A stretch of DNA of 57,673 nt, counting the filler, from Sluysia triapertura (lineage: Eukaryota), in assembly GCA_046118255.1 (NCBI GenBank). It is 5 parts of 5 records of this genome, joined end to end, with 100 filler letters (N's around TTAATTAATTAA, not from the genome) between each part and the next. Parts side by side here need not be neighbours in the genome. Positions count along the whole stretch, not along the records: positions 1 to 11,245 come from JBJNIA010186869.1; 4 more parts are not named here. The stretch is one strand, 5' to 3'. Below are positions 581 to 46,149 of this stretch, piece after piece. Position 1 is the first letter of the stretch; each line of letters starts with the position of its first letter. Made by a program: the position numbers and the translations under genes. The notes beneath the pieces were generated by a model that saw nothing but the letters and a program-made list of their open reading frames with translations, made no database searches and had not been told where the DNA came from.

Positions 581-625
581 TAGATAAGGTTTTAGATTTT
601 GTAATTAAGAAAACTAAATTATGGA

Positions 626-1640
626 TTGAAAATCAATATAACGAAAGAAAAAAAGAGCCAAAAAACAGAAGAGCCGACAAATATAATGACACAATTATTT
701 GGCAATAACGGTAATATGTTAAATAACGTAATACCAAGGATAGGTAATTCAACAAATAATATGTTATTTATCATGATATTATTAGCAATATTCGGCATAA
801 ATAGAACTAATGCAATAAAGGCATTTGACTGTAATCAGCCACCAATAGGTAGAAAATTTTCATTATTCGATACGGAAGAATACAAATAAAAGATACTAAG
901 TTAATGAGTGTTTATCAAGAAGGTAATCTAACAACAACTCTAATAAGAGAGTGCATGGCAAAACGATCATTGGCAATCTGGTATGGCGGTCACCATAGAA
1001 TAATAATAGAATTATCAATAATAGAATTATCTAATGTACTCAAACCATTTAAGAAATTACCTAAACAATGCAGAGATGTATTTGAAACCAGCTACATAAG
1101 TCTAACAAAGGGAGACAAATTAAAATAGGAAATAATGAAAAGATAATTTATAATATAAGAACCGCCGGAAACGTATTGATAGATGGAACATGCGAACAAG
1201 GAACAATCGAATACGAGGGAAAAATATATCACAATGTTGCCGCACAGGAGACATGCGTAGTTAGTTTAAAATCATTTAATGAAAGTTTTTATATGGATAA
1301 AGGCACGATGATGTCCCGATCATATTGTAAAAGTGATCAAACCAGTTGTGACAATGGAGAATCAATATTAATTTACGAACTAGACAAATTTCAGTTAATA
1401 TTCCTTAAACAAATAAAATTTAATGTAATATCGGAATTTATGTATCAAGATAAAGATGAACACCCATTAGAAGAAATAAATAGAAATGATGACCAAATAC
1501 AAAGAAAAAGATTAGATGAAGTCGAAACACCGACAATACTAATGGATAGTAAAGAAGAAGATGGTCTGATTTTTACTGCTAAGGGAACAGAAATTCGATG
1601 CGGAAAAGAGATGACAGAAACTAACTATCAAGGAATTTAA
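626..1640 (+). pseudogene. env: Env-like glycoprotein, chuvirus G / class III-fusogen-like, N-terminal half, frameshifted
   Basis: Signal peptide MLFIMILLAIFGINRTNA (from 761), then IKAFDCNQP..FSLFDTEE, VYQE..IRECMAKRSLAIWY(G)GHH, GTCEQG..YEGKIYHNV, CG..M..TNY. The Cys pattern matches remembered chuvirus-like glycoproteins. Confidence 0.7.
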
Positions 1641-1802
1641 AATAATGAGAATGAAGAAATAGCAGAAAATCAAAAACACATTAAGATCAAGAAAACTATA
1701 GACATAACTAAAGATAATCAGGAAAAAGGACTTTATCCTATTACTCCAACATCACCACCCCATGTAATCTATGTGATATGTGCTAATAATTATTATAATT
1801 GA

Positions 1803-2100
1803 TCGAATAGACCAATAGTAAACACTAGAATAAACATTAGAGTAGTAACGGCACTAATTGATACAGGAGCAGTAGCCTCCCTAATAAACGAAATAAAGAT
1901 GAATTAAAAAATTTAGCTAATCATATTTCTCATTTATCAGGAGTTACAGGCGATACCATTAATATAACCGGAGTGATGAAAGCTATATGTGAGATAGGAC
2001 AAAACAAGCTAGAAATTAAATTAAGAGTTATGAAAAAATGTCCAGAAGAAATGATAATGGGAATGGACATTCTGTCTCAATTAAAAGAAGTAACACTAGA
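1803..2100 (+). pseudogene. Retroviral-type aspartic protease (PR1)
   Basis: RPIVNTRINIRVVTALIDTGAVASLI (Asp codon 1860-1862); after a frameshift LSGVTG..ITG..EMIMGMDILSQL. Confidence 0.9.
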
Positions 2101-2149
2101 TTTCGACCAAGTTAAATTAATGTATAGTCGATCAAAGAGAGCTATTGAT

Positions 2150-2410
2150 GATGATGTATACGTCGATAAACCAATTTGGTTAGTAAAAAGAAGTGAATAT
2201 ATAATTCATGTCAAGACAAACAGTCTATTAACTGGAAATATCATGTTCATTGCATCAGAGGTCAACCAAGAGAAACTAGACATAGGAATAGCTAATGCAG
2301 TGTGCAATAATTGCGAAGGAAAAATACCAGTTCGGATTATAAACTATACAAATGACAATAAATGGATTTATACATGGACAAAATTAGGAAAAATAGTCAA
2401 ATATACGATA
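2150..2410 (+). pseudogene. dUTPase-like linker domain between PR and RT
   Basis: IGIANAV..GKIPVRIINYTNDNKWIYTWTKLGKI resembles the degenerate dUTPase-fold segment of many Gypsy pol proteins. Confidence 0.5.
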
Positions 2411-2589
2411 CCGCCACACATTAACTTAATTTCCGAAAACAAAAACGAAAACAAGATAAAGAGTAATTAAAATTACAACATGAAATAAAAGATGATGATT
2501 ACAGCGAAATAGTTATTACTAATAAGAACTTAACTAAGAAACAGATTGATCAATTATATAGTGTTATTTACCGATATCGAATTTAATGT

Positions 2590-3050
2590 CGAATTTAAAT
2601 GGACTAATGAACAAACTAATGCATTTAAGGAACTGAAAGAACGATTGACAACGGCACCAATATTAATTTTTCCGGATATTAACAAACCATTTATATTGAC
2701 TACTGATACTAGTAACTATGCTATTGGTGCGATTTTAGGCCAAAAAGACAAAAACAATTTAGAAGCAGTAATTACTTATGCCAGTCGACGTTTGAATAAG
2801 GCCGAGATGAATTATTCGACCATTGAAAGAGAATGTTTGGCTATTGTACACGCTTGCAAATTATTTAGACATTATTATTGGGACAGAAAGCTTATTTATA
2901 TACCGATCACAAGCCCCTAACATATTTATATAATTATAGAGATGAGGTCAGCCGATTAAGCAGATGGTTTAATAAATTAGCAGAATTTAATTTAGAAGTC
3001 ATTTATAAACCAGGCCCTCAAAACAATGGCGCGGATTCTATGTCACGCTT
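2590..3050 (+). pseudogene. pol: Gypsy RT connection and RNase H
   Basis: FKWTNEQTNAFKELKERLTTAPIL..FILTTDTSNYAIGAILGQ..YASRRLNKAEMNYSTIERECLAIV..(frameshift) YTDHKPL..YKPG..ADSMSR. Confidence 0.95.
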
Positions 3051-3088
3051 GACTAATGTAGATGATAAGGAAAATATTAATTTTATAC

Positions 3089-3251
3089 TGCTAGACTTCG
3101 TAAAATGGACTGACCGGGGATCGAACCCGGGACCATCGTCTGCGCAGTCCGACTGCTCTACCACTGAGCTCTCAGCCCCGTCCAACAATTTCAGTTTTAT
3201 TATATTCAATTTTATCAAATGGCACTTTTTTTTAGGCCTTTTACCCCAACA
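3089..3251 (-). mobile_element. 163-bp TG...CA mini-element (solo-LTR-like) carrying a tRNA-like gene
   Basis: Flanked by ATAC at 3085-3088 and 3252-3255. Termini TGCTAG...CCAACA are an imperfect inverted repeat. Excision restores the pol frame (NFI-QIMSISGK). Second copy at ~41784-41923. Confidence 0.85.
3106..3178 (-). ncRNA. tRNA-like sequence with non-canonical anticodon arm, followed by TTTT
   Basis: GGGCTGA/TCAGTCC acceptor stem, GCTC-AGTGGTA-GAGC D arm, CCGGG-TTCGATC-CCCGG T arm. Anticodon region irregular (GACTGCGCAGA, loosely Cys-like); isotype not assignable. Confidence 0.7.
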
Positions 3252-3255
3252 ATAC

Positions 3256-4430
3256 AAATAATGTCAATATCAGGAAAAGTACAGGATACTAAAGAAATTA
3301 TTAAACATCAAAGAGAGGATAAGGAAACCGCTTATATTATAGATTCGCTAGCAAAGGGAACGTTAATCGAAAGCCAAGCAAATAGGTTAGCTATTACTGA
3401 CGGAATACTCAGATTCAGAAATTCGAAAGGTGAATTAGGCGGTCATTTATCTAAGAGAAAGACACTATCTAGAATAAAAGACAAATATTATTGGGAAGAT
3501 ATGGAAGATGATATTACAAATTGGTATAAAGATTGTTCAATATGTTGTAGAAGAAAAAATATGGGAACAAGAACAAAGGTACCATTAAAACCTATGCATG
3601 TACCATTGTCACTAATGGAATTTACAGCAATGGACATAATCGGACCACTACCGGAAACTATCAGTGGAAACAAGTATATTATTGTGTTTGCTGACTATTT
3701 AACTAAATGGCCTGAAGCATATCCAATGCCGAATCAAAAAGCAGAAACTGTAGCACAAATATTGGTAGAAAAAATAATATACAGGTATGGTACACCAAGA
3801 AAATTATTAACTGATCAAGGTACAAATTTTACTGGTGATGTAATCAAATCAGTAGCAATAATATTTTATATTCTTAGAATTCATACATCACCTTACCATC
3901 CACAAACTGACGGATTAGTCGAACGATTTAATCGAGCATTGATAAATATGTTACAATCCTATATTAATGACAGACAATCCGATTGGGATTTATACATTTC
4001 ACCATGTTTATTTGCCTGTACGTGGTTCTGTACATCCAGCTACGAATTTTATACCATTTTACTTAATGTAGGGACGGCATTCTAATATGCCTGTAGATTT
4101 AGAATGGATACCACCAACGTCACAATACATGGAAACTCCGGAATATGTAACAGTAATGCATGAGAGATTACAAGATGCATGGAAACGTGCTGGATTGCAA
4201 ATAAAATTTTCACAAGGAGTATACAAAGACACTTATGATAAAAAAGCCAAACAACACACTTTTCAAATCGGTGACAAAGTACTTATTGAATATCCTGACA
4301 AAACCTGGACAATCACCAAAATTACATAAACCATTCAAAGGACCATACAAAGTAATAAAAATTACCGATACTAATTTATTTGTCAAAGACACTATTAAAT
4401 CAGATTCCGAAACATTTATAGTTCATGTAA
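3256..4430 (+). pseudogene. pol: Gypsy integrase (partial HHCC, DDE core, GPY/F)
   Basis: GGHL..YYW..CSIC; AMDIIGPLP; LLTDQGTNF; HPQTDGLVERFNR; frameshifted tail FQIGDKVL..KLHKPFKGPYKV..IVHVNRCK. Confidence 0.95.
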
Positions 4431-4589
4431 ATAGGTGTAAATTAGCACCAAACAATGAATATAGGTTAAGTAATAGGACAGTTACTAAAACATTAATAAA
4501 AGCTAAACCGAAAATTAAAGACCGTGACAATACAATCATTAGTTGATAAACAAGTAATAATGATATTCAATGTATCAACAGGAATACGA

Positions 4590-4910
4590 ACACATATCTT
4601 TCAAAACGTACGATTTAATGGTAGATGAACCGGAGCTACCACATCTGTAATACATTATAATTTTTTAATTACATGGGAAGTTGTACTTATAGGTCCACCA
4701 CAAACGATAATTTACAATGTTCAACGAGCACCTATACATATGAATGGAATAATACACGCGCATTTACATGTATTAGACAAACAAGTAAATGAGTATATTT
4801 ACGTTTGGGGAGAATCTCCTTTCGATTTAATAATTGGTTTAAATTAGATGATATAGTTATACATAGTAAATACGGACTTATGAAATGTCCATACGGTACA
4901 CAATTACTAG
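4590..4910 (+). pseudogene. Second retropepsin-like aspartic protease (PR2) downstream of integrase
   Basis: One frame reads QNVRFNGR*TGATTSVIHYNFL..IIYNVQRAPIHMNGIIHAHLHVLDKQVNEYIYVWGESPFDLIIGLN. It has (D)TGA and DLIIG motifs; the Asp codon is disrupted at ~4624-4629. Confidence 0.7.
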
Positions 4911-5109
4911 TCCCACAAATTATTGTTCTATCTCTTCATAATGATATTACTCCAATTCATATTCCTACACCTGAACTCCCATCTGGCCGATTAACTGATT
5001 TATGTCATCAGTAACAAGTGAATTTTCAGAATCATTGTCATCAGGAATCGGTTCTGTCGAGACAGTAATGCTCACTTTCTCCAGTAAAAATAATAATAAG
5101 ACTAAGAAA

Positions 5110-5689
5110 TCATTCTGGACCTCATTATTAATATTAATAGTTCTATTTATAACTTTAATTGGTACAGTTAAATCAATAGATATTGAGGAATATTAGGAAT
5201 ATAGGAACTTATATGCCGCAATTAATAATGGAAAGACAAAAAAATATCGATTACAAATATATATAATGAGTATTGGGAAATGAAATTCAATTCAAAGAAA
5301 ATGTTTATACGTCATAAATTCGATATTTACTGCATTTATTTGAAACCGTTATTCATCGGAAAACCACATCATGTAGATAAAATACCACGATGTTTGCAAT
5401 ATGCAATAAACCAATGTTAGTAGCATTTTCATTGGACACTAAAAGAAATATAAGAAAAGTGCAAAATTTCATACAAAATATAACAAATAAAGTCATAAAG
5501 AATTGTACAACTAAGTTCAAAGCTAGCACACTATTATCTAACGATACTATGTATAATATTTTTACTTTAGTTCATAAGTTAATTATTATCTCAGTAATTC
5601 TTATAGTGGTATATGACATATGGATTATATTGCACATAGTTGACTTCAGTAAAAAAAACTACGAACAAGTAATATTAATAAAAAATTGA
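5110..5689 (+). pseudogene. Accessory membrane module 1 (signal peptide, ectodomain, TM), unknown function
   Basis: FWTSLLILIVLFITLIGTVKS|IDIEEY, then a disrupted ectodomain and TM LIIISVILIVVYDIWIIL. Confidence 0.5.
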
Positions 5690-6217
5690 TACATCTAACG
5701 ATAATGATGATAATCACTACAGCCCACTGTAATACTCATAATGTATTACTCATAATGTAATACTCATAATTACGACGCTGAGGTCAGAATCAAAGTATTA
5801 CAAAGTGACATTCAAGTTAGATTTTCTTGCTTAAAACCCGCACGATTTAATTTCAGCTCATGGGAAGTACAACAATATTATATCAATGATAGAGCAAATC
5901 CTGTCGCCATATGCCCTGATTTTCTACAAAACGAAGAAAGACACATTGTTGCAAGAATATATATAGCACCAGCTAAGATAGAACAATTACATTTTGCGTT
6001 AAAAGGAAAACGAAAATATTTGTCATTATCAGAAATGCTACGAAATGACCCGGAATTATTAATTTTAATTTTAGCTGGAATATTATTTGTTATTGCACTA
6101 TGCATTGTTATACTTGTAATTATTATGTTCATATCAAATAGATGTAGGTACCCATGTTTACCATATAATCGTGACGATGATGACAATCAATACACCATTC
6201 CGCATAGGACTAATTAA
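5690..6217 (+). pseudogene. Accessory type-I membrane module 2, unknown function
   Basis: Frame open from 5756 to 6217 (CNTHNYDAEVRIKVLQSDIQVRFSC..TM LLILILAGILFVIALCIVILVIIMFI..CRYPC). Signal-like LIHLTIMMIITTAHC is rejoined if two copies of the 14-bp repeat are removed. Confidence 0.6.
5728..5769. repeat. 14-bp tandem repeat x3 (TGTAATACTCATAA)
   Basis: Three adjacent copies, one mismatch; they cause a frameshift in module 2. Confidence 0.9.
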
Positions 6218-6307
6218 TGAACCGCCACCAGGATTTCAAGTAAGACCAACCCTGTCTACGAGTACGCAACAAATAAACATTCACCTTTAGTATACGGAGG
6301 ATGGCAA

Positions 6308-7242
6308 GTGACTAGTTTACAATCTGTCATGCTAGCATGTATATGTATGACTTGTATAATTAACGTATATGCAAAATCGATAATAATAAAGCCACATATT
6401 GCATTAAAAGTATTACAACGCACGATATATGCAAAGATAAGAAGCGATACTGCTATAGTCACTAATATTACTATGCACTGTTGTTTGACTAAATGGTGCA
6501 ATCATGAATCAGACGTTAGCAAATATACCAAGTACTGGATTGCATCTTGTGATGGTCTTATGGAAAATCAATAATTCAACGTCACTCTACATTTAGAATT
6601 TATGACAAATTGGGATTCGACAACCAAGTTTATATGTATGTACAGGATTTTCTTTTAGTTAGTCATCTTACAATAACTATTAAGTTCTTAATGACATTGT
6701 ATAGGGAGAACAATAACTTCGTTCATACATTAATTCCCTTAATAAAACATAATATATTAATAGGTTACGAATCAAATAAAAAGAATCTTACTAGTGATAA
6801 TTTTGACGCTCTTTTTGATAAAGAACAACATTATGCACTAATATTACCCAACACCAGTATTCATTTATTCTTTGTACCAGAACGCAATTTCACACTTATT
6901 GAAATTTGGATTCTACGTTATAACGAGATCCACGATATTCCTGGATTCTGGCCAGAGTATAGAGTATGCGATCTAGTGGTGCCAATCTTAGACAAGTCAG
7001 ATGTTCTAAATTATCCATCACCAGTTACGACCACTACTATTTTAAGTATATTAAAAACTATAAGTTATACTAGAACCACCAACTATGTCACTAGACCAAG
7101 TAAGAATATAAGTCTACAATCTTATAATTACTTGTGTTTAAGCCATCCGATCATCTCTACAAATTTATATCGCACTATTCTTAGTTATTACATTTTATTA
7201 AGTTTTCTTTTCGTTACTTCATTTATACACATTATATTCTAA
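6308..7242 (+). pseudogene. Accessory secreted/membrane module 3 with Thr-rich stalk and C-terminal hydrophobic anchor
   Basis: VMLACICMTCIINVYA|KSIIIKPHIALKVLQ.., Cys-containing ectodomain, PSPVTTTT stalk, terminal ILSYYILLSFLFVTSFIHIIF*; stop/frameshift near 6574-6610. Confidence 0.55.
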
Positions 7243-7472
7243 GTTCATAAGTTTTATTTATTTATAAGGCATAAAAATCAGTTTTTCATTAAAGTATAAA
7301 TTATAAAAGGCATAAAATGTGAGTGATAGCATTTCCCTGTTTACTAACCATGTGTGACGGCTGTTAACTTTCAATTCTCGGTTGTGGACAGGACAGCGTT
7401 GGAGCTCATATTTTAGTAAAATAACATACGCTATTTAGTTAAGAAGAAGTTTTACTAGCATAATTAGTTAAA

Positions 7473-7919
7473 ATGAATTTTCATATTCACCTTATGCTCC
7501 ATTTGTCGAAGGCCTATACATAGATACTACTCTATCGCAATACTTTGTAGACATCGCTTTCATTTGCGATGTCTGTATTTTCTGTTTGACTCTGCCCCGA
7601 TTCTCTTACTTTCTTGTTCTTTGTGCCGAGCCACAATCACAGAATGTGATATTTTTTTTATAAAAAGTCATTTCGTAGGTCTTACGACTTCTCTATCAAA
7701 TACATTAGACTTAACTCAATCCCTATTGTAGCTTATAATGGGCTCCGGGAGAATGCGAACGTTGATATTTATCAACCTCCAATTTTTCCAGGCGTTACCG
7801 TCCTGTACAACGGATTCCAGGTACCAAAGCCTGATTATCCACCAGGACTAACAAAATCACAAAGGCGTAATTATAGAAATTTCATAAGAATGCACGATTA
7901 TGCAAAAATCCATTTTTGA
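7473..7919 (+). pseudogene. RING-H2 finger protein (putative E3 ligase) inside the retroelement
   Basis: 7495-7629 translates to CSICRRPIHRYYSIAILCRHRFHLRCLYFLFDSAPILLLSCSLCR, with all eight C3H2C3 ligands. Frameshifted tail ..PPGLTKSQRRNYRNFIRMHDYAKIHF*. Absent from the ORF track. Confidence 0.85.
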
Positions 7920-8063
7920 AACGCTAGTATATTTCCTAATTATTATCGCTTATTATAGTACTAAAGTACATTGAAACATAAAAAATTACTTTTTAACATT
8001 TTTCTTTTATTTTTACGAATTTTCCTCTTTATGTAAATTTTAAATTATTTTCATAATCCAGCA

Positions 8064-8563
8064 CACATCGAGTCAAAATACCCCAAGCCAGAACCATCAA
8101 CCAAATCAAAATCTTTTACTAATCTATTGATAAATTCTGCGTAGAGAATACTACTCCTAAATTCTTTTCTAATTCCTTTGCCACGGACTGTAAACTGAAA
8201 TCCGAATTAACTGACAATGTGGCAACCAACATTTTTGCTTTATCATCAGAGATGCCTTTTACTTCCTTACAGGGCTTGACCAATGCGCCTGACGAATTTG
8301 AGACAATGCACATAGTAGCTGCACGAGTGACAATTAAGGTCACTCTAGAGGTTGAAGGAATCCCTTTATTATTACGCCTAGAAAATCACTCGACCCTCCA
8401 TCTATAAAATCTAAATATAAATCTTGTAAGGTAATGATGAAAGCCCTTTAATTCCAAACTTTTCTTTTTGTTCTGCCTTCTAATCCTCTTTTTGTTCTGC
8501 CTTCTAATCCTCTTTTTGTTCTGCCTTCTAATCCTCTTTTTGTTCTGCCTTCTAATCCTCTTT
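8064..8563 (-). pseudogene. Possible antisense accessory ORF with basic KRIRRQNK repeats
   Basis: One minus frame reads (KRIRRQNK)x4-KKSLELKGFHHYLTRF..VE*FSRRNNKG..VKPCKEVKGISDDKAKMLV..; a single internal stop. Confidence 0.35.
8464..8563. repeat. 24-bp perfect tandem repeat, at least 4 copies, running into an assembly gap
   Basis: Unit CTTTTTGTTCTGCCTTCTAATCCT. Confidence 0.95.
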
Positions 8564-8959
8564 NNNNNNNNNNNNNNNNNNNNNNNNNNNNNNNNNNNNN
8601 NNNNNNNNNNNNNNNNNNNNNNNNNNNNNNNNNNNNNNNNNNNNNNNNNNNNNNNNNNNNNNNTTGCTCTCTTTTTCCTCCCGTTTGCAGTGGATGGGAA
8701 GGCGGCTCATCATATACGCACGTTCCGCCCCTTTCTGCGTATGATGAGGAAAGACTTATGTTTGTGGCTTTTCAATATGCCACAGATTTCTTGAATAACC
8801 CTCAACTAATTTGTGTGACCTGTACTCCGTAAAGTCGTCAATTTCACACTGAGCCCCCATCAAACCTCGATGCCGTATCCAAAATTTGAGGCGCAACGTT
8901 CAAACGATCACGGACGTCGATCATAGGTTGGCTAAGGACATGGACGAGGTCCCCCGCAA

Positions 8960-9478
8960 TTGATAGGGATTTTACGTAATAAAATCCTAGTAGCGCTGAA
9001 TCCCAAATTTATTATTAATGCCTTAAACATTCCCTTCGGGTTGCTGAGAGGGATCATTAATTTATCAAACCATAATTTGGTTCCGTTTGCCACTGACGAT
9101 CCTTTTATTAGAGCACGTCAAACAGTGCGACTAATTTTCCATTTTAGTCCAGTGTTGACTTATCGGCAAATGGCATCAGAATTAGTAACCCTGCTTGATT
9201 ATAAAAGGGAGCGAGATTTACAGTTCATTTCTCGCTGTAATAACCCTCCACCCGTTCTCTTTAAGAAACCTTCTACTATCCCTACTTCTAATTCCAAACT
9301 TTCTCCTCCTTCTCCGAAAAAAACTCACATCTTCTTCTTCCCCTTCTACTTCTTTTTCTTTTCTTCCTTAACTTCCACTCCTCATTCGACAAGACAATTC
9401 AACGATTCACCATCATCTGCTCCATCGTTTGCCAAATCATCAGTGAATACTTCATCAGCAACTAAGACTTCATCATAG
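8960..9478 (+). pseudogene. Unknown accessory ORF with Ser/Pro-rich tail, probably part of a longer frameshifted ORF (8664-9650)
   Basis: 172-aa ORF in a locally GC-richer region; no family recognised. Confidence 0.35.
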
Positions 9479-9736
9479 CCAATCCACCACTCACTAAATT
9501 ACCAACGAGTACGACATCAATAAATCATCGAGAAGCACACGAGTTGCAGCTGCTGTCTCCAAAGAAATTTCATAGTGACAATGGTTCCCACTACTTGTTC
9601 CGATACGACTACCTACTCCATGAAGACGACTCGGTGGATTTGGACTGATAATTTAGACTAATATTACAATGATATTTCATAATAATTATGATCTATTTAT
9701 AATAATATGACATTTTTTTCGAGAACGAATTTTCCC

Positions 9737-9751
9737 GAAAGGGAAAGTAGT
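9737..9751 (+). promoter_or_regulatory. Polypurine tract
   Basis: GAAAGGGAAAGTAGT immediately before TGTAAAG, preceded by TTCGAGAACGAATTTT, a Gypsy-like context. Confidence 0.75.
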
Positions 9752-10541
9752 TGTAAAGATTAAATTTTTATAATTACACTTTATGTTTTTATATTTTATG
9801 TATATTTGTTAAAATTTTATATGAAAAAATTATAAATATTATTATTATACTTAAAATAAAAATATAAATTATAAATAAAAATTAAAAATATAAATATAAA
9901 TTAATTTTGTTTAAAATTAAAAGTAAGTTTTTGTTTAAAATAATTAATTAATTTTAAGAAATAAAGAACAATTTTAAATATCTTCATCGTTTTATTACTA
10001 AACTTTGTTGATAGAATTCTCAAATCCCTCACCGGATCTTTAAGTAATCGAATCACTAAATATTGGTTAGCACAAAATGTTTCTTTAATCTGATTAGTTT
10101 CTTGAAAAATAGCTGAAATCTGATCATGTGTAACTAATATTCTACAGAAATAAGAAATATTAAGTTCTGTTGGTTGATCAGTTGCATTCATATTTCCAAT
10201 TAAACATTACTTTTACACTTAATGCTTCACTTATGTTAATCGATTTACTATACTCTTGAGTTAGACTTCCTTCTGCAAGTGTTTCTAAAAACTTAAACTT
10301 ATTTGCAAATTATCTGAGGAGTCGGTTCGCCTAATACATACGATTTATACCACTAATTGGAAACGTACTATTAGGTTTTCTAAATTATACTTAACTAACT
10401 TTTTATTTTATAACTTAAGTCTTATCTTTTATGTCCAGTTGCTTGGAGCACTTTAATTAATTTATACTACAACCCCTTACTAGGTGTTGTTTAATTAAAC
10501 TTTTATATTTTATATTTACGCAACCCATATTAAGGTGTTAC
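9752..10541 (+). mobile_element. 3' LTR of the Gypsy element (3' end uncertain: ..TACTACA 10471 or ..GGTGTTAC 10541)
   Basis: TG start directly after the PPT; AT-rich U3-like tract. Confidence 0.6.
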
Positions 10542-10556
10542 TTTCTCAAAAATTAA

Positions 10557-11245
10557 TGTGAATTTCGATAAAGATAAAGTTTAAACACAATTAATTAAAA
10601 ATGAACTTAAACTGAAACTTTTTATTGCACAAAATGTTAACTTACAAAATTACAATAATAATGAGCTTACAATTAGTTAATAAAACAAAATATAATAATA
10701 ATAATGAATTTAACAAAGTAATTCAACCTCAGTTGATTACAAATAATTTTAGCGTAAGGTTACGCAACTCTTGTTAAGATGTTGCATAAAAAACGAATTT
10801 TCGTTGATTTTTGGATTCCCTTAGAGATGAATCGGACCTTATAAAAAAATTAAATTACTTGTGCATGAACTGATTTACAGTTTTCAATTTTGTCTTCTAA
10901 AAATTCAAATTCTAAATCCTGAACTTGATCTAAAAAAATTGTGTTGAAAATATTTTGCTCACTTCTATTTATATTAATCCAATTGATACTTCCATTTTGT
11001 CAAATATTAATTTAATAAAACAAAATTTGAAAAACAAAGATTTATAAATTTAATAATTTTTTGTTCTAAAAAATGTACTTCACCTTTTATTCAATTTATT
11101 CAATTTTAAGTTTAGTAATTTAATTTTAATTTTAATAGTTTTAATTTTCTAGTTTTTTCTGACTTTGAATTAACGTTTTTATAATTTATTTTATCAAAAA
11201 TATTATTTTAAAATTAATAACTTTTTTATTTTAATTATAATAAAA
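10557..11245 (-). mobile_element. LTR-like repeat (family B), second diverged copy, truncated by spacer
   Basis: Shares TTACGCAAC..GTTGC, GATTCCC..TGAATCG..CCTTATAAAAA..AATTACTTGT and the minus-strand TATAAATAG with 1-300. Boundaries approximate. Confidence 0.5.
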
Positions 11246-11345
11246 NNNNNNNNNNNNNNNNNNNNNNNNNNNNNNNNNNNNNNNNNNNNTTAATTAATTA
11301 ANNNNNNNNNNNNNNNNNNNNNNNNNNNNNNNNNNNNNNNNNNNN
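11246..11345. other. Artificial contig spacer
   Basis: N44-TTAATTAATTAA-N44 (stop codons in all six frames). Confidence 0.95.
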
Positions 11346-13338
11346 AAAATTAATCGTACAAAAATATTCTTTGCCTTAACTTAACAATAATGGGCAAAAT
11401 CGTCGTTTATGTCAATTAACAACAAATGACTTAAAAACTAATTAAGACTAATTAATAGATATTTAAATTAAAATTAAGTGAATAATAATAGTATAAGAAC
11501 ATACTCTTTCCTATATCTCTAAATTCTAATATAACGACCGTAGAATTTATTAAAACAATATTGAAATCGACGTAACTTTTATTTCTAGAAAATATGTATT
11601 AATTATGGTTTATTATATAAAGTAAAAATAACTGTAAACTTAATTTAGGTTTTACGTTTATTTAACAAAAGAATTCAAAAAATTATTTCAAGACTTTTGA
11701 TTATATAAAATGCTATAAAAAACGATAATAATTCAGTGAAACAGATAGTTATAATTATTAACAACACAAAAAATAATAATAAAATTATAATAAAGATAAT
11801 ATTTAAATTATAGTAATGGTCTAGCCGAAAACTCTACCCTTTGATATCTATTTTGTAATTGACCTTAACGGCCAACTAAAGATTCGAGATTTTAGATTTT
11901 AGTTTGATTTTGTGATTGGCTTTAATGACCAACCGTGAAAAATAGTATTTTAAGTATATTTTATAACTCTACGTGAAGCTAACAACTTATATAAACAAAA
12001 CATATAATTTTAATCAAAATCTTCGATGATATTGTCCAAAATCGATCTGCCAAATGTAATTATTGCTGCTGTAGATGTGTTACCCCTCTAATCGGGGACG
12101 CGGGGATCACACAATAATTGCGAGAAGAAATTAATAATGGATTTGTTGAAACTGGATGACACAACGAATTCACTTGTTGATAAAATTGAGCGCTGATTTC
12201 CTTGTTGGCTCTTTCTTTATTTGATAATGGCGTCGAATTAATTAATGATGGCATCTAATTTTTAATGATGGTGTTTATAATTTAATTGTTGTAATTGTGA
12301 ATTGTGACTTCTATTTTCTTTGTATGTCTTTATATAGTCATAGACATTTTTAAATTTTTTGATGTAATTAAACAAAATTGTTTCTAGATGTTTCTTTTGT
12401 AATGTTTTTTAATTTATAATAATAATAATTCTAATTTTAATATAAACTAATAATTTTTTAAATAATATAAATTTTAATAATTTTTTATAATTTTTACAAT
12501 TTTTTTACATAACACAAAATTAAAAATTTTTATACCTTTACATTACTTATTTAATTAAACTGTATCATTAAGAATTGGCGTGTTACATAAATTCCTGATT
12601 AAATTTATGTTTATTTAAATTTCGATTAGATTTTGTGTTTACATTTGATTTTATTACATTTTGATATTGAAGTTTTAATTAAATTAAATTAAATTTTGTT
12701 CGTTCTTGATTCAATTAATTTTCATTTTATATTTCATTATTTTATTTTACTGTATTATTATTACTATTATCATTATTATTTTTTATAATTATAATTATAA
12801 TTATTATTGTAAGAAATAGAAATGCAAAGAAACATAAAAATAAATTTAAAAGATTATTTTGTAAGTATAATTATTTTTAATTTGAAATTATTAAATAATT
12901 AAATAGTTTAAAAAAGGACATTAAAAATTTTAATTACTAAAAAAGAAAATCCTAAAATAATTTAATTGCCTGTTAACAAAAGATTTATAATAGTTAAAAA
13001 AGAGTTATTGTAAAAAACAAAATTTATTGGATGAAAGATAATATTGGAAAACAAATAATGCAGACCACAACAAACAAACAATTCATTAAAGTTATTCAAC
13101 ATTCACACACATTGTTGTAATCCCAATAATTGTTAAAATACAAAGGAAGGAGTAACGATCAGGATTTAAAAGTAATAAAATATCAAACAGTGTTCCAGAT
13201 AATCATTCCAATTTTAAATTTATCTATTGTAAGTTTATTCTCGTAAGGCTAATCTTAAGTAATTAAGATTTAAACTACACTTAAACTCACTATATATTCC
13301 AGATTTTCTTAAGGGTAATCTTAAAATCAATTCATTAT

Positions 13339-13909
13339 TGAGTAGGGTCTTGTTACAGTAAACGCCTTATGTCGTAAAGGTAGCGTCAATGCCAAAAAAT
13401 TTAATCTATTATTTAATTTGGAGGGTCTCTTAAATTACTTTTATTATCAACTTGTCCAACTAATATAATTAAAATAAGTAAACTAAACTAAATTAGCTAT
13501 TTAACAGAAAAGTAAAGACTTATGAAACCGAGTTACAAAAATATAAATTTATAATCAAAATCTTATGGATCTTTGATTTTTTTATAAATGATGATAATTA
13601 AAAACGTTCCCCTCATTAGATCGGGTTTTTGATAGTTCCTTAAATTGAATTTACCTAGATTTTACGTTTCAATTTTTTAAATAAATAAATTGTGTTGAAC
13701 TGATGCTAGTTTATATACTAGTCATCAGCCAATAGAAATCGATGGAATGTTTTAGAACATTCTAGAAGCTTATTTTTTTGAAAAATAATTTTTATTTAGT
13801 GGAAAATAATTTTTTAACTTATTTCGAAGCTTTTAAATATTTTTTCAATGTTTTAAAATGTTTTAATGATTTTTAAATAATTTTAGAGAGTTGCGATGGC
13901 AACCTAACA
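13339..13909 (-). mobile_element. LTR-like repeat (family C), copy 1
   Basis: Minus strand starts TGTTAGGTTG. Shares CTAGTTTATATACTA-TCATCAGCCAAT..ATCGATGGAATGTTT and GTTAC.GTAAACG blocks with 54112-54874. Confidence 0.6.
13744..13769. promoter_or_regulatory. Heat-shock-element-like array near CCAAT and TATA
   Basis: GAAtgTTTtaGAAcaTTCtaGAA forms alternating nGAAn units. Confidence 0.55.
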
Positions 13910-15305
13910 TATATTAACACATATTATATGTTGTTATAATAATTGATAAAATACTTGACTTAGTTGCAGACTGCTCATAGATTAACATTTAATCACAAAA
14001 TTATTAAAAATCGTTAAGTAGAGTTACAATAAATTAAAAGACCATTAAGGAAAAGTTTATTTCAGAAAGATTTGCAAACTTCTTAAGAACCAAAAGGTTA
14101 AAATTCGGTAGGTCGTTTTTTACTTACAGATATGTCTTCGATCAGATATGAATCGACCCTAAGTTTATTTAATTTGCAGACAGCTAAAATTAATAACACT
14201 AGAATTATTATTATTATTATCATCCATTTTTTGTTGTTTTAATTTAAATCCACTTATTATAGACATTAGTTTTAACAAAGAAGTAATTATTTGTATAGAC
14301 ATAATCTTAAATTATATAATCCCATAAATAAAATATAATTAAATAAAATTTTTATTGTGTTAAAGTAAAATAAAATTGTCAGACACTAAGTGCGGTTTTA
14401 AAAATGACTAAACATTATAAATATTATTAAATAATTTTGAAAATTTTTATTCGCACTTCCATCTGCAACATCAGAGTTAGAATAACAATATCACAGTTAA
14501 AGAAAAAATTAGATTTAAATGTTAAATCAGAATAATTTTAATAAAAATTAAAAAGTAACTTAAATATAATATCACTTAAAGTTTTAAAAAGATTTTCATT
14601 TAATTTACGAGTAATTTATAAAATAAGAGCCATTAAATAAGAAGAATCGACAAGCATAGATTAAGTTTATAGTTTGATAAAAAGTAATGCAAAAGTAATA
14701 AATAACTAATAAGCTTTTATTACAATATAAATCAAAATTTTATCAAATTCAAATTCCGTTTCTTTCTTCAAGATATGAGGTCATAGACTTTATTCAAGAC
14801 TTTAAATAATATTATAGTGATCAATATTTTAAAGCTACGGATTCGTTTATAAGTACAAACATTTTTTTTGTTTTATTGTAATACATTTTACTTTCTTGTA
14901 CATCACTCAATTGCTAAACTGAAAATGGATTTAAAAATTCAAGTTTCGGACTAAAAATATTTTTTTCAAATTGTTAAATTTTATTTTTGCTAGTTGTATT
15001 ACAGATTTAATAAATTCAGTATTATATAAATAAATTCTCAAAATCAAAATACATTAAAGATAAAAAATGTATTAATTAAATAAGGAAAATCGAATGTTAA
15101 ATTTAATAAAGATTTGACATTTTCTAAATAATAAATATATTCTTAATGTAATAATTATTATTTATTAATTTCAATTATAAATCATACAACGAAGGAGATA
15201 ATTTAACATAGATTACTGCTTCTCGCATGTCGATGAGATGTTTATGTATATTAGCACTTTTGGGTACTTACTTTGTAGTAGATATGAGCGCAATATAAAT
15301 TAATA

Positions 15306-38810: not shown

Positions 38811-40592
38811 ACTAACTTAATTGACCTCAATGTAGACTTGATAATTCATCCAAAGACTTTAATATTGATGATGAATCGGTGTATACGGAATATATATTAA
38901 ATAGTAAGAATGATGACATTTTATCTCAAAACATACAAATGTCATTTTTAGTTCCGGTTAATACTATGATGAATGTAAATGAATGATTACCAAACAATTT
39001 CACGGAATCATGACACATTAGAAAGTAAAGAAAATATTGAGAATTGTGGTAACAGTTTACGTTATAATATTTTTCAAGATAACATACAATCAGGAAGTAA
39101 TTCTCCTACTCTTTTTAAAAGCTTTCACAAGTCGATTGAATGCTTATCTGAATTAAAAGAAAATACGGAAATTATAGTCTACAAAGACTATAATTGCAGA
39201 TAAAGCAAATGACGAAGTTGAGATTGAGAAAAAAGATGTAAAACAGAGTAATATGAACCTAATTCAAAATTTTGACAATGCACGACAAATATTTAATGGT
39301 GAATTAAATGATAAATTTCTGCAAAAAATATGTCCCAGGTGTGTTTAGAATCTAACGAAAAATGCAAAAAAGATTACAAGACACTATTTCTTCTAAATGT
39401 CAACTTTTTTACTATATACCTAAAATTGTAACGTATGCTCCATCAATTCCTAGAAATCCAGTGTTTCAAAAACATTTCAATAATGAATGACACACAAGTC
39501 AATATATTAGAACAGCACTTTGCCCATAAAGCAGTGACCCAAAAGGTATTTGCATGAAGTTTGGGATCCATTATCAATATGCCCACACAGTTAGCCAAAT
39601 AGTAAATCTTAAGACCGAAGATACGTCTCATGCTGATCACTTTTCCAGACTCGAAAATCTTCTCCAATACTTTGGATTATCAACTTTAAAAAAATCGGAC
39701 AAGATTGTATTCATAAAGTAAATAACTTTTATCCTGACATCAATGATGATATAATTTTTGATTTTTATTTAGATGGCGTAATGTGGAATTCGATAAATGG
39801 CATATATGGGACTAAACACGTGAATTCTAAAAATTTTATAAATAAATCTTTGTGTTAATTATTATTAATGATTTTCTTAATTTTCTATACAGCATAAATT
39901 TAAAATATAAAAACTTAATAAGTTTTTGTACGAAGAACAAACTAATTTCAGTTATAAAGTTCATCTTTAATTTAAACCATATCATAACTCAACAAACATA
40001 ATTATAAATTATAAATTTATATAAATTAACAATAAAAATAATTTAAACAATTTTTAGTAAATAAATAAATATAAAATTGTAATAATTTACAAGATTACTA
40101 CATGAATATAGTAATCCAAGTAATTGAGTTTAAAATAGAAAAAATCTAAAAAAAACTGTTTAAAAATGTTTTGAAGAAGGTAAATTAAAAATAAATTTTA
40201 ACTAAAAATTTTCTGCTTAAATGTTGATTAAATAGCGTTATAATCTTAAAAATTGTATGCTAACGATTATTGTGATTAAAGATGAAGTCCGTCTCAAAAT
40301 ATAGTTTAATTAGTCCTGACGGCAAATACAAATTTTTCCAAATTAATATTTAAAAAATTAACTGGTAAGGAAACCGCTTTGAAAATAAAATTTTTTTGTA
40401 TGAACAATAGTAGTTTACACTACTATTTATATATTAATTGATATTGACCTTGAAGGTCTCGGGTAGTGAAGTTGATTTTATAAGCATAAAACCTAAATAT
40501 AGAGTTAGAAACTGACCAAAAAACGAAAATGTATTATGCAATATGTATTTCATGAATATTTCATGTATTTCAATATTGTTAATGTAGAAAGA

Positions 40593-41752
40593 TGTAAATA
40601 ACATTAGAAAACATTGCAAAGTGATTCATGAATAATTATATTATTTAGTTAATTTTATTGATATAATTATTTATTTGATTTTATTTTTGGTTATTATAAT
40701 TATTTATTTGATTTTATTTTTGGTTATTATAATTAATTATTTGATTTATTTTTGGTCATTAAAAAATGAATATTTTATTATTATATAAAATATAAAAATT
40801 TAATATGTAAAATTTATAAAATTAAGTTATATAAAAAATTTTAATATATTTAAAAAATTATATATAAAAATCTAATTAAGTTAAAAATATATTAATATTT
40901 AAAATTAAGAAATAAATTTTGTTTAAAATAAATAGATTTTGTTTTAAACGTAGGTAAGTATATAAATAGATTGATTTTAATCACGTAGGACAGAATTATT
41001 AAACGTAGCAGTTATCACTAGCAAGAACCAGAACAACCAGGATAAACAACAAACTCAATATCCATGCAAAAGTAATTTCATTTTTGTAGGTCTCTAAAAA
41101 TCCTAATTGTAAGAATAGGATCTTAAAATATCACGTAAAATTCCATTTTGTTTAACAGACCGTAATACGGCTGTTTTAATCTTTAATTAAAATCAAAAGA
41201 ACTAAGAGTAATCTTAAGTTCCTAAACTCAGTATTATTATTATAGTTTTCAACATTTATTATTTTATATATTTGTAAATTCTTTTGGGTTAATACATCTT
41301 TGGACTTGTTTAGTTCCTGAACTTATCTTATTAAACTCATTTTATATTTGACAGACCGTAAAAAGGCTGTCTTAACGTTTAAAAAATCTACAACTATAAC
41401 TAATAATATTATATTTAAGAAAGCCTCTAATTCTTAGACTACTTTTGTTGTACTAATTAACTATTTTACTTCAAATAAGCCTGATTAGACCGTCTTCCAC
41501 TGGTGACGTAAATCGTTTTCTAATCAGCCGAACTTATCTCCAGATAGACATTTTGTAAGCGAGTTCTGTCTTTGTAGGAACTCTTGCAAAATTTGGTGCC
41601 CAGAGTGAGGATTGATTGCCTCACCTTGCAAAATTTTTTGTCATTGACCGGAATCGATCCGTGGTTTTGGTTTGTTGGTTTATGCTTCGCGCCCGTTGGG
41701 GAGTCACGCATTTTGAATTATTATTAAGTTAGGTTCTTTAACTATTGTAACA
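40593..41752 (+). mobile_element. LTR-like repeat with structured 3' part
   Basis: TG start, AT-rich tract with a 33-bp triplication, TATAAATAG at ~40961, several hairpins, ends TGTAACA. No TSD found. Confidence 0.35.
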
Positions 41753-41783: not shown

Positions 41784-41923
41784 TGCTTGGTCACTTAATC
41801 GAACCCGGGACCATTTTCTGCGCAGTCGGTGCTCTACCACTGAGCTATCAGTTCCGTCTAACTATTTCATTTTTATTAAATTCAATTTTATCAAATGGCA
41901 CTCTTATGCCTTTTACCCCAACA
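41784..41923 (-). mobile_element. Second, more decayed copy of the tRNA-carrying mini-element
   Basis: ATCGAACCCGGGACCAT..CTGCGCAGTC..TGCTCTACCACTGAGCT..TTCAATTTTATCAAATGGCACT..GCCTTTTACCCCAACA shared with 3120-3251; same CA end. Confidence 0.85.
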
Positions 41924-43079
41924 CTAGATACGTTGCTAAACTCACATATAGTTTTATTCTCGTTTGGAAAACAAGCTTTTCTCACAGTATTATTTTATTA
42001 TTATTATATTAGTGTAATAAAATATTAAAATTATTATAAAATCATAAATGTTTATTTAAAGTATTAAGAAAATTCATTTAAAATATTAAAAAAATTTTCA
42101 ACCAACTTATATTTAAATTTTTTGTTTGAACAAATCAATACTCAATATCTGGGCTTACGGATTACGGCTAGACCGTTGAATTTAAAAAAAAATAATAACG
42201 TTCAATTATTGGAGGTTAAACTTAGTCTCAAATGTCTTATTAATGAACTTTAGCGTTACTTCTTATGTAAGCAATGGTGTAAACTGTTAAGTGATGTATC
42301 ACAAATTTTACTATTCAAAATATAGTGGGGTTTAGACTGATTATTGAATATTAATCTTTTCATTCATTATCAAATTTTACGACAGATCTTTCTTAAATAG
42401 GATCTTTAGAATTTAATGGTTTGTGATATCCGATGAAAATTTCGGATTTTAAAAGAAAGAATTTGATCTGGTATTGTAATTTATAAAATTCGAATCTATG
42501 TAATTTACGAATGATCCTTCTTAAATAGGATCTTTAATTAATATTTTAATTATATATGTGTGAGGAAGTTTACGTTAATTCTCTATTAAACTGAATCAAA
42601 CAAAAAAACTTTGCATACTCATATTAAAAATAAGTTTTTCGTAAACATTGATACAAATATTTTAGTTAGGTTTAAATAAATGAATAAATAAGGTTTATTA
42701 TAAAAAATCAGACAAAAATATTTACAAAACATATATAATTAATGTGTGGAGGGCAATAAACATTCGAATTTATATTCTTTATTATTTTTTAATTTATTAT
42801 GGAAATTGCTTATAACTTTAATTAAATCTAAATTATTTACAGTATTAAATAAACCAAAACACTTTAACTTTGGTTGTATTATGTTTAACAAAGTAGGAGT
42901 AAGGCCTGTAACAAATAACAAACTTAAAAAGGTAACTAAATTTGCCATTTTATTAACTACCAACAATAAAAAAGAACAAAAAAGGTTAATATCAAATAAT
43001 AATAAAACTATGTTTTTCTGTACATCCACTAGAGTATCTTCCGGAGTTGCAACCAATAATTGTAATGTTATTAATCTAG

Positions 43080-43290
43080 CCATTATCCAGACAAATTCAA
43101 TATTAACATCTTCAGCAAAGCTTTCACCAGGTGGACAGTGGGAATGTTTATCGATCGATTTTTCTATTACTTCTTTAAGAGCACCTCTCGATATTAGATA
43201 GTCTCCACTACCACTAATGTAACCCTGTTTCGCGTGCATCTTAGAACGTTTACCCGTAATTGTCAGTGTATTTGGATCCATATGTATTAC
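43080..43290 (-). pseudogene. C1GALT1: Core 1 beta-1,3-galactosyltransferase (GT31) fragment inside the 269-aa ORF 42739-43548
   Basis: DPNTLTITGKRSKMHAKQGYISGSGDYLISRGALK..C..AEDVNI(frameshift)ICL parallels YFGRRFK..KQGYMSGGAGYVLSKEALK..EDLALG.C. Confidence 0.7.
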
Positions 43291-43924
43291 ATAGTCATTT
43301 TCTTCTTTAGTATGTGGTGGCTTAGAAGATTTTGAGTTATTTTTACTTTTATTGATATATGATTTAACACATTTCCAAAATATTACTATAACAGCAAAAA
43401 TCATCAAAAACATTCTGTCGTTAGAGTCAAATTTACTTTTACTTTCCCAATTATTTTTAACTTCATTAGGTATGAATTTAATATTTTTCTTAATAAATTG
43501 TAAACCATGATCTTGTCTTGAAGTATCTCCACTTGACATTTCAAACAATAATTTATTAATATATTTTTCATAAAATCTTTTTTATCCATATTCATCATAA
43601 TAATTAATGCTAATTTAAAATAAGTTTTCAAAACAAAATATTGTTATAATTTAAGTACTTTGAAACTAAATTATGTTAAATTCAAAAACATGATTAAAAA
43701 TAATTATTCCTTTAAACTACTAGATTTTTTTATTGTCATTTAATTATTAGTATATTTAAAGTTTACCAAAATAGAATTGGTCATATAATAGTCTGTTGTT
43801 TAGCAGGTTTTCTATTTTTTACAAGAATAATAATAATTAGGAAAAATCATTGTAATGAAATTAATCTACCACTTGGAGAAATATCCTTATGAAACAACTG
43901 AAAAATATTTGCAGATATTTTCCC

Positions 43925-44395
43925 ATTTTAATATAATCGTTTAACTTTTCCCAAATAATTCGATTTTTTTGTATATTTTCGATCATACCAACTCCATGAT
44001 CCGGATATAGATTAGCAAACATTTCGAAGCATGGATATGCGATTCCATCAAGAAATGATATTTGTAAACTTGGATCACAAGCTCTTTCTCAGTCCATTTG
44101 TTCAACATGTTTTTGACCAGTTGATTTTTCTAAATCACCTTGCGTAAAAAAACTCCTCATAGATCAATTCTGCAACTGCCCTTGTATTTTTCAAATTTTT
44201 TAGATTGATCGCTTAAATCTGCACATGTCATTAACAGATCTCTCGATAACACATGATATCCATCATTATTGATATCATATTTTGATTGAATCATAGCTCT
44301 TTATTCGGAAATAATTCTTAGGTGTTGAGCTAAATCTGTAGCTAAAATAATATCTTGAATTATATCTCAGACTTGCTTATATTCACATGATTCAA
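43925..44395 (-). pseudogene. PDE2A: Cyclic nucleotide phosphodiesterase 2 catalytic-domain fragment, intronless
   Basis: YKQV*DIIQDIILATDLAQHLRI..LLMTCADLSDQSK..VAELIYEEFF/TQGDLEK..MD*ERAC.PSLQISFLDGIAYPCF..NRIIW; three stops and at least two frameshifts. Confidence 0.9.
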
Positions 44396-45780: not shown

Positions 45781-46149
45781 ATCACTTCAAAAATCATTAA
45801 TTTTGTATTTATAATTTCAAAATAACAATAAACTAAATGGAATTTATTTTAACATTTGTAACTTTGCTAATACTCTCTCATGATACTCTTTCATAATTCG
45901 TCATTTCGTTATTATCGCGCCACCGCTCACCGTGCCTTCAACCATCGTTTAACCGACCTACTCATCATCACATGTATCCGTCATCGTATCAGTCTCATGT
46001 ACACACTCATCATGTACCGTATAATCAACAAACACTTAACAGAAACAAGAGTCCCAGTATGAAATTACATGTCAAAAAATTTCCAGAAAGCAAAGAATTC
46101 ATCATAATGACTTAACTGAAGAGCGTACCGCTTCTAGAAATAGAGGACA

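Follow-up and report, generated by a model that had tools for sequence, protein, structure and literature searches.

The 57,673-nucleotide stretch of Sluysia triapertura DNA analysed here (the window) raises the question of whether a Gypsy-type retroelement carried a fusion glycoprotein, a second protease, membrane proteins and a RING domain as genes of its own, and to which lineage such an element would belong. By its sequence, the region from 541 to ~10540 is a decayed Ty3/Gypsy element (coordinates are those of the window, on the plus strand unless stated otherwise). What remains is the N-terminal half of Env, a protease, then RNase H and integrase, another protease, ORFs for membrane proteins, a RING-H2 domain that is still intact, a polypurine tract (PPT) and the start of an LTR, while Gag, RT, the other half of Env and a 5′ LTR were not found in this copy, which is dead and internally deleted. 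With a probability of about three in four, it derives from a Ty3/Gypsy lineage whose intact members encode a giant Gag-Env-protease-RT-RNase H-integrase-membrane polyprotein together with accessory genes, and that is likely an enveloped, Burro-like endogenous virus.

Env and Pol remnants

The chuvirus-like glycoprotein that an earlier note on this DNA had placed upstream of pol is confirmed as the N-terminal half of a chuvirus/gB-type Env (Monjiviricetes_fusion), with signal peptide, spread over three frames (731..1640). Profile PF24664 matches it below the cut-off (E 1.4e-4), while the Env profile of the clade described below detects three pieces (E 1.6e-26, 2.5e-10 and 1.6e-8), which align to residues 5-312 of the ~635-aa Env of an intact relative, L023. 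The C-terminal half and the TM anchor are missing. A Bcl-2 remnant suspected by eye at 541-705 was not supported, and neither Bcl-2-like nor ubiquitin-like domains before Env, nor ankyrins, could be detected in the window.

Env stands before the protease (PR), a broken aspartic protease followed by a beta-rich spacer and the first residues before RT (1779..2580; tblastn to P0005, P0011 and L023). The connection/RNase H region comes next in two frames (2585..3090; PF17919, E 1.8e-37). Ahead of it, ~290 codons of RT are deleted, the alignment leaping from residue 312 to residue 601 of P0005. The integrase (3267..4480; PF00665, PF17921) consists of a damaged zinc-finger region, core and C-terminal domain in three frames and is 60-69% identical to clade members. 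Between RNase H and integrase, a tRNA-derived, SINE-like repeat on the minus strand (3106..3254; ARAGORN; Rfam tRNA, 45.6 bits) is a later insertion, of which a second copy with 86% identity lies at 41798-41926. Gene fragments in the window and a tRNA-derived repeat point to an animal host; a search with one host exon returned no match, and a PDB search with another was uninformative. Profile matches and tblastn to relatives bear out the presence of protease, RNase H and integrase, in the Gypsy-type Pol order PR-RT-RNase H-IN, where RT is lost from the window but present in the relatives.

Intact relatives of the element

The window integrase is nested in a 73-row clade of intact metagenomic elements (SH-aLRT 97), within a sub-branch of its own (support 90), in a quick tree of 196 columns from which 83 of 204 rows, all below 50% identity, were omitted. 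Clade proteins recur across many metagenome assemblies, with clusters of 20 and 21 near-identical proteins. Fourteen exceed 2,000 aa (P0121-P0134, here the large relatives) and are polyproteins of 2,400-4,060 aa; some relatives are counted as both locus and protein (L023 = P0121, L021 ~ P0132, L015 ~ P0131).

In 13 of the 14 large relatives, PF24664 detects Env ahead of Pol, and in 13 of 14 a gB-type Env lies between gag and pol. Env is open and full-length, with signal and TM, in 13 of 14, and it is upstream of the protease in the three fetched loci that reach that far. The relatives' Env matches no solved fusion protein by sequence, so calling it class III depends on PF24664 and on published work. 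At the post-integrase position, a protease with an intact DTG/DSG motif occurs in nine large relatives, and a signal or TM segment follows the integrase in 13. The repeat unit of this membrane protein is modelled by AF2 with a pLDDT of 89, and its best Foldseek matches are FN3 domains (E 2e-4); the sequence profile also returns fibronectin (E 5e-4), and by model and profile the unit folds as fibronectin III.

The remaining cargo varies. Four relatives carry a helical domain before Env whose matches are solely Bcl-2-family rows down to rank 50, with a weak model (pLDDT 49, best E 0.01). Some have a ubiquitin-like domain (PF00240, E 4e-5) and ankyrins; Ig and C2H2 domains also come and go, and the FN3/TM module is duplicated in L017 and P0011. 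Of nine loci with more than 1.5 kb of sequence downstream of the polyprotein, eight have a nuclease-like ORF there. That of L012 resembles SDN1, ISG20L2 and ISG20 (E 1e-11 to 1e-14), and the first D-x-E motif is present in five of ten copies and missing in the other five. In L024, PPT, LTR, a PBS-like site and the start of gag share one contig.

The complex, Env-bearing Gypsy lineage proposed earlier is supported. Its cargo keeps the same order in intact relatives, with Env ahead of Pol, additional proteases, a type I membrane protein and accessory ORFs before the PPT. Given their giant protein with Env ahead of the polymerase, extra proteases and an FN3-type membrane protein, the lineage is likely undescribed, virus-like and Burro-like in build.

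Cargo behind the integrase

The region 4560-8460 is derived from coding sequence on the plus strand, as ORFs cover 0.83 of it, compared with 0.37 on the minus strand and no more than 0.45 across 100 simulated sequences. The earlier description of same-strand decayed ORFs after the integrase therefore holds. So does that of a second aspartic protease (4600..4900), whose catalytic motif is interrupted: the ORF at 4629-4895 matches the protease profile with E 4.8e-6 among 1041 window ORFs, its score is reached by 0/1000 shuffles, and tblastn aligns it to the P0005 protease (E 6.6e-6).

Three membrane modules follow by hydropathy. Module 1 (4999..5689), with a signal-like stretch at 5119, a broken middle and a TM at 5579, sits where the clade has its post-integrase membrane protein. 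Module 2 (5700..6217) comprises an ectodomain of ~95 aa, a TM at 6080 and a short tail, its start being disrupted by a 14-nt tandem repeat. Module 3 (6221..7242; one or two genes) has a signal at 6323, a Thr-rich stalk and a TM at 7177. The three signal/TM modules of the earlier note stand insofar as these five hydrophobic peaks fall within long plus-strand ORFs; their number is less secure, as the region's seven hydrophobic stretches are inside the range of 2-7 for nine host stretches of equal length. Since the modules are broken, the 'three proteins' could be two to four.

The affinities of these modules are limited. Modules 1 and 2 match no relative examined, module 2 does not match the relatives' FN3 unit, and modules 2 and 3 do not align to each other. 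None of five profiles built on membrane modules, nor one of a Cys-rich module, has a significant match in the window, the ORF at 6553-7239 has none among 1.84 billion representatives, and an Atlas search with 5756-6214 returned nothing usable. The FN3 unit profile suggests a possible FN3-like unit in module 3 at 6392-6661, where 0/500 shuffles reach its score, yet this score is not above the host background; hhalign of the two gives E 0.016 at a probability of 2.9%.

A RING-H2 domain (7477..7731) occupies a separate downstream ORF, as the earlier note had reported. It keeps all eight ligands in the C3H2C3 pattern, matches PF13639 at the cut-off (E 4.4e-6) and has APC11 as its best PDB match (E 0.025). 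It may act as a ubiquitin ligase in host-protein degradation. As a feature of the lineage the RING is not supported: it was seen in the window copy only, none being found in 15 relative loci or in the 26 large proteins listed. Most likely, the RING and the further membrane ORFs are cargo specific to the window's sub-lineage.

In an alternative, the core architecture is genuine, while the RING and modules 2-3 stem from fragments of host genes or from processed pseudogenes, which the window copy captured or received by insertion and which never functioned as element genes. Their missing homologues in the relatives and databases searched, and the other decayed gene fragments elsewhere in the window, would fit such an origin. 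A host gene should, however, have database relatives; moreover, the dense coding is restricted to the element strand, module 3 resembles the clade FN3 unit by the shuffle test, and cargo is freely swapped among relatives. This origin is unlikely, and cargo of the sub-lineage remains the preferred reading.

The assembly gap and the 3′ end

Two ORF remnants (7650..8407) precede a 24-nt tandem repeat that extends into an assembly gap (8463..8663, no strand assigned). The segment 8123-8407 may be the N-terminal domain of a nuclease-like gene, with a score that is not significant (18/500 shuffles reach it). Past the gap lies the remnant of a DEDDh-exonuclease-like accessory ORF (8665..9478), which matches the clade nuclease family with E 3.7e-5 among 1041 ORFs and scores 18-21.5 bits with all ten leave-one-out profiles (0/1000 shuffles). 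Its first piece, 8665-8832, is reached by 0/500 shuffles, but scores just 3.1 bits; an Atlas search with 8936-9250 yielded nothing usable. The first acidic motif (D-x-E) is missing, and the window ORF is likely a pseudo-nuclease. The ORF after the gap, earlier counted among the unknown ones, is thus a DEDDh-exonuclease-like remnant. Its presence there means that the gap joins element DNA, contrary to the concern that unrelated sequence might follow it.

The PPT downstream of the cargo lies at 9737..9752; in the interval from 4500 to 14000, no other such tract has TG directly behind it. It is succeeded by a probable 3′ LTR (9753..10541, right end putative) whose AT-rich start resembles that of the L024 LTR; this layout of nuclease-like ORF, PPT and LTR start is common to the window and L024. 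No partner LTR was found in the window, and a candidate near 41 kb was discarded as the partner because it matches solely in the AT-rich start. A search of sequencing runs listed one, X1, sharing 0.51 of the query words, and no RNA run.

A second alternative is a mosaic, in which a 5′ part (Env to the second protease and module 1) and a 3′ part (RING, nuclease-like ORF, PPT and LTR) stem from two related elements that recombination, nested insertion or assembly brought together, so that the full cargo never occurred in one element. Base composition is compatible with a separate origin of the RING-to-nuclease block, which is T/C-rich (AT skew -0.10), whereas the window env-pol is A-rich (+0.21), as are the relatives' accessory ORFs (+0.15 to +0.36). 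The gap within a tandem repeat, the lack of a significant tie between the ORFs on its two sides and the two large internal deletions, which mark a rearranged copy, point the same way. Against this, the order of parts agrees with intact relatives from Env through PPT, all parts share one strand, and no internal LTR or repeat was found. A mosaic is therefore quite improbable, and a single decayed element is preferred.

Comparison with known elements

The earlier assumption of no more than an env in Metaviridae is too narrow, since Burro (PMC6431247) and rotifer LTR elements (PMC5408684) carry such cargo, according to the accessible text of these papers. Env-before-pol Gypsy elements with such cargo are already known, namely Burro and the GAG-ENV-POL errantiviruses.

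Burro/GYPSM1 are giant Gypsy elements of planarians, with an internal region of up to 25 kb, an ORF1 of ~5,000 aa and BIR/MATH domains. Their order is Gag, Ubl, BCL-2, Env, PR; the Env, a relative of mononegavirus fusion proteins, is encoded in frame with Gag before it and Pol after it in one giant ORF (excerpts of PMC6431247). A RING+BIR region of Burro is reported, second-hand, to be functional (excerpt of PMC13465017). The clade relatives have the same single polyprotein, in which an in-frame Env separates Gag from Pol and which is broken in the window, as well as accessory ORFs; some of them may share a ubiquitin/SUMO-like then a BCL-2-like domain before Env, together with ankyrins; RING-containing cargo is shared by the window copy only. 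In contrast, clade polyproteins are 2,400-4,060 aa long (contigs of 9-32 kb) against 4,873-5,140 aa in Burro, the longest clade ORF1 reaching 4,057 aa although proteins of up to 6,481 aa were admitted to the search. Multiple proteases, an FN3 membrane protein behind the integrase and DEDDh ORFs go unmentioned for Burro in the accessible part of PMC6431247, while no BIR, MATH or midasin domains were found in the clade relatives scanned. No named Burro sequence appeared among the clade search matches.

GAG-ENV-POL errantiviruses with an HSV-gB-type Env are described from Nematoda, Bryozoa and Platyhelminthes by Chary & Hayashi (PMC13524379), in whose account, as far as available, they include the non-canonical ERVs reported from nematodes by Sacco et al. 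2022. They resemble the clade in combining a Ty3/Gypsy pol with a gB/chuvirus-type Env before it. They differ in that no extra proteases, FN3 protein or nuclease ORF are described in the available text, where 'RING' and 'accessory' have no occurrence and 'protease' has one; clade motifs were not found in the portions of its supplement entries that were listed. Juno and Vesta, LTR retrotransposons of bdelloid rotifers, carry, in the interval from pol to the 3′ LTR, an exonuclease ORF of the DEDD family or small TM ORFs, as in the clade; per the accessible text, however, their exonucleases are DEDDy/RNase D-like with intact motifs, and a gB-type Env before pol is absent (PMC5408684). PDB matches, in contrast, make the clade ORF ISG20/REX4-like, and half of its copies lack the motif.

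Anakin is a BEL/Pao element, whereas the window element is Ty3/Gypsy. This mosquito LTR retrotransposon likewise captured a chuvirus-type glycoprotein (excerpts of PMC7642597 and PMC12440569). Troyka was rejected as a match, having CG termini (excerpt of PMC12440569) where the window element has TG. The openly accessible literature searched yielded no gag-env-pol Gypsy element that combines a protease behind the integrase with an FN3 protein and a DEDDh ORF.

Proposed mechanism and significance

In an intact member, Env and the FN3 protein would enter the membrane by way of internal signal peptides, and Gag and Pol would be left as cytosolic stretches tethered to membrane anchors. The extra aspartic proteases, which adjoin these anchors, could then cut the Gag and Pol stretches free. 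Membrane fusion would be the task of Env (class III, by family), and the FN3 protein may serve as a second surface protein, for attachment or as a decoy. The DEDDh-like protein might bind or trim RNA, half of the copies, including that of the window, being devoid of the catalytic motif. Host cell death and ubiquitin pathways may be the targets of the variable domains, which are Bcl-2-like, ubiquitin-like, ankyrin and, in the window, RING.

Such a design could also belong to an intracellular retrotransposon that uses Env and the FN3 protein for membrane targeting or short-range cell-to-cell passage in the host, with no free infectious particles. IMG/VR scans returned no clade member (one gave 10 distant integrases, 24-30% identity), and the infectivity of Burro is likewise a hypothesis in the accessible text of PMC6431247. 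Yet the blank is weak, since IMG/VR holds few animal retroelements, and the open, full-length Env of nearly all large relatives counts against this reading. The intracellular reading is a serious contender, at somewhat below even odds. The virus-like reading, put forward tentatively and judged on balance doubtful in its full form, is that of an undescribed, complex, enveloped invertebrate retrovirus-like lineage, independent of or sister to Burro, with a class III fusogen and an FN3 attachment or decoy protein as its two surface proteins, up to three proteases for self-processing and a swappable set of genes for host control (Bcl-2-like, ubiquitin-like, ankyrin, RING ligase, ISG20-like nuclease or pseudo-nuclease), whose intact members may still replicate and spread.

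The window copy is of value as a pointer to this clade and as its sole RING carrier so far. Burro has until now been treated as a planarian oddity; the clade presents the same design, an Env within a giant polyprotein alongside apoptosis and ubiquitin cargo, in diverse intact elements, and supplements it with a presumed second surface protein, repeated proteases and a family of RNA nucleases some of whose members are inactive. If this holds, complex genomes rich in accessory genes arose in Metaviridae on a broader scale than the record shows, and there are intact natural members that would allow particle formation and host manipulation to be studied.

Anatomy and decay of the window copy

The element at 541 to about 10540 is a real feature and, with a probability of about three in four, represents one dead copy of a Ty3/Gypsy lineage together with its cargo. 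On the + strand it runs from part of a Monjiviricetes-type fusion glycoprotein through protease, RNase H, a tRNA-derived insertion and integrase to about 5 kb of ORF remnants, the PPT (9737-9752, +) and, directly after it, an LTR-like start. The surrounding scaffold is AT-rich (GC mostly 16-30% outside the element) and presumably from an animal host. The copy is dead. Compared with intact relatives, Env is reduced to residues 5-312 of about 635 and about 290 codons of RT are missing; neither Gag nor a 5′ LTR was detected for the window element. Despite this, 4560-8460 is coding-derived on the element strand, where ORF cover reaches 0.83; the opposite strand has 0.37, and none of 100 simulations exceeds 0.45.

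The tRNA-derived repeat has two window copies (3106-3254 and 41798-41926, 86% identical), both in or adjoining LTR-element remnants. A PBS-like site of 17 bases at 41594-41610 differs by one mismatch from the PBS behind the LTR of the related locus L024 (0 of 100 shuffles), and its primer presumably resembles elongator tRNA-Met. Of 570 tiles compared with the start of the 3′ LTR candidate, the highest-scoring is the AT-rich stretch 5′ of this site, within 40730-41700; beyond that start the region has no alignment to the candidate, and it may be what is left of the LTR and PBS of a related element. Decayed host gene fragments occupy 38137-39720, 42739-44600 and 46040-46357; they include a RUN domain identified by Pfam and pieces that by eye resemble a glycosyltransferase, a phosphodiesterase and calmodulin.

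An Env-bearing clade

Among the best 120 of 1310 integrase matches examined, the top 16 are set apart within the matches listed, 15 of them at 51-68% identity. A clade-specific motif scan yielded 27 loci, 17 with a related integrase (one weakly), and 39 matches were obtained from proteins 2,036-6,481 aa long; some of these proteins are identical elements to the loci, so that the counts overlap. An integrase tree built quickly from 121 of the 204 rows places the window within a clade including proteins P0121-P0134 (SH-aLRT 97). Env precedes Pol in 13 of these 14, the exception, P0130, beginning inside Pol; 13 also have a signal or TM segment behind integrase, and nine a post-integrase protease with intact motif. 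L017, L021 and L023, the three loci that extend upstream of the protease, each contain one ORF of 3,184-3,703 codons in which Env precedes the protease.

Every close relative derives from a metagenome assembly or bin; clade members L036, L037 and P0134 lie within MAG assemblies of bacteria, where they are presumably contaminants of eukaryotic origin. The L024 LTR (1230-1800) contains a tandem array with units of about 60 bases.

Second protease, membrane proteins and RING-H2

The second protease claimed in the earlier note is real and occupies the clade's usual post-integrase position; Env-bearing members have one to three proteases in total. The relatives' membrane protein comprises a signal, one to three beta units of 90 residues, a stalk and a TM segment, the beta unit having a predicted fold (pLDDT 89) that matches FN3 domains. 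Just outside the clade, P0136 and P0137 carry an Ig domain in its place. In a sub-branch (L015:2865-3700, P0013, P0131, P0133), FN3 is replaced by a Cys-rich ectodomain, apparently helical and matching no known family.

The three membrane proteins proposed for the window hold only in part. Module 1 (4999..5689, +) takes the position of the relatives' post-integrase membrane protein, but matches no relative; module 2 (5700..6217, +) is likewise unmatched and shows no resemblance to the FN3 unit. Module 3 (6221..7242, +) bears a weak resemblance to that unit: none of 500 shuffles reached its score, yet host DNA scores 7.4 bits against its 7.1, and hhalign gives a probability of 2.9%. Hydrophobic stretches per se are common in the AT-rich DNA of the window. 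The RING-H2 domain, the most striking item of the earlier note, retains all its ligands, but is found in none of the relatives examined and rests on a single dead copy.

Nuclease-like ORF and assembly gap

Eight of the nine loci with sufficient downstream DNA carry a separate nuclease-like ORF, duplicated in two. Half of the eight scanned match Pfam RNase_T, one matches ISG20-family structures, and the first catalytic motif is missing in five of ten copies. Downstream in L012 and L019, two such genes stand in tandem, one with the catalytic motif and one without it; a further, terminal ORF of L012 appears ubiquitin-like by eye.

The gap at 8564-8663 might have joined unrelated sequence to the element. 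Beyond it, the ORF at 8936-9478, also without the first catalytic motif, robustly matches this nuclease-like family, and PPT and LTR start come after it in exactly the layout of L024, so the DNA past the gap belongs to an element. It is likely but unproven that both sides belong to one element, because the sequence link across the gap is below significance and base skew differs between the two parts.

Cargo, known systems and a possible mechanism

Ubiquitin-like, ankyrin and C2H2 domains are carried by some relatives only. Four members (L017:794-1258, L023:3133-3558, L021:8891-9250, P0122) have a helical domain immediately before Env, whose low-confidence model (pLDDT 49) returns Bcl-2-family structures only (best E 0.01). 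This Bcl-2-like domain adjoins the Env signal, and in several relatives helical and ubiquitin-like domains lie ahead of it.

Burro, the giant planarian Gypsy elements, combine Gag, Ubl, BCL-2, Env and Pol in a single ORF (available text of PMC6431247), with ankyrin and RING/BIR cargo (same text and that of PMC13465017). The clade shares the single ORF with Env ahead of Pol, and some of its members carry ankyrins, but it lacks the size and, in the relatives scanned, the BIR/MATH features of Burro; by this likeness of features, the element probably works like Burro. Nematodes, bryozoans and flatworms are recorded as carrying GAG-ENV-POL elements whose Env is of gB type (PMC13524379), and LTR elements of rotifers can bear DEDD nuclease ORFs (PMC5408684). 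Repeated proteases, an FN3 membrane protein and an ISG20-like ORF in combination with such a design were not found described in the literature open to the search.

Domain order is observed, and known family behaviour suggests the remaining steps. Internal signals would put Env and the FN3 protein into the membrane, Gag and Pol staying tethered. Proteases lie beside anchors, behind the Env TM, behind an extra FN3/TM module (L017, P0011) and ahead of the signal that follows integrase; from such positions they would free the enzymes. Entry would proceed via Env, with the FN3 protein as attachment factor or decoy; nuclease or pseudo-nuclease may handle RNA, and Bcl-2-like, ankyrin, ubiquitin-like and RING domains may preserve host cell life or eliminate restriction factors. 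True extracellular infectivity of the lineage stands at about even odds, and the clade is of greater interest than the window copy.
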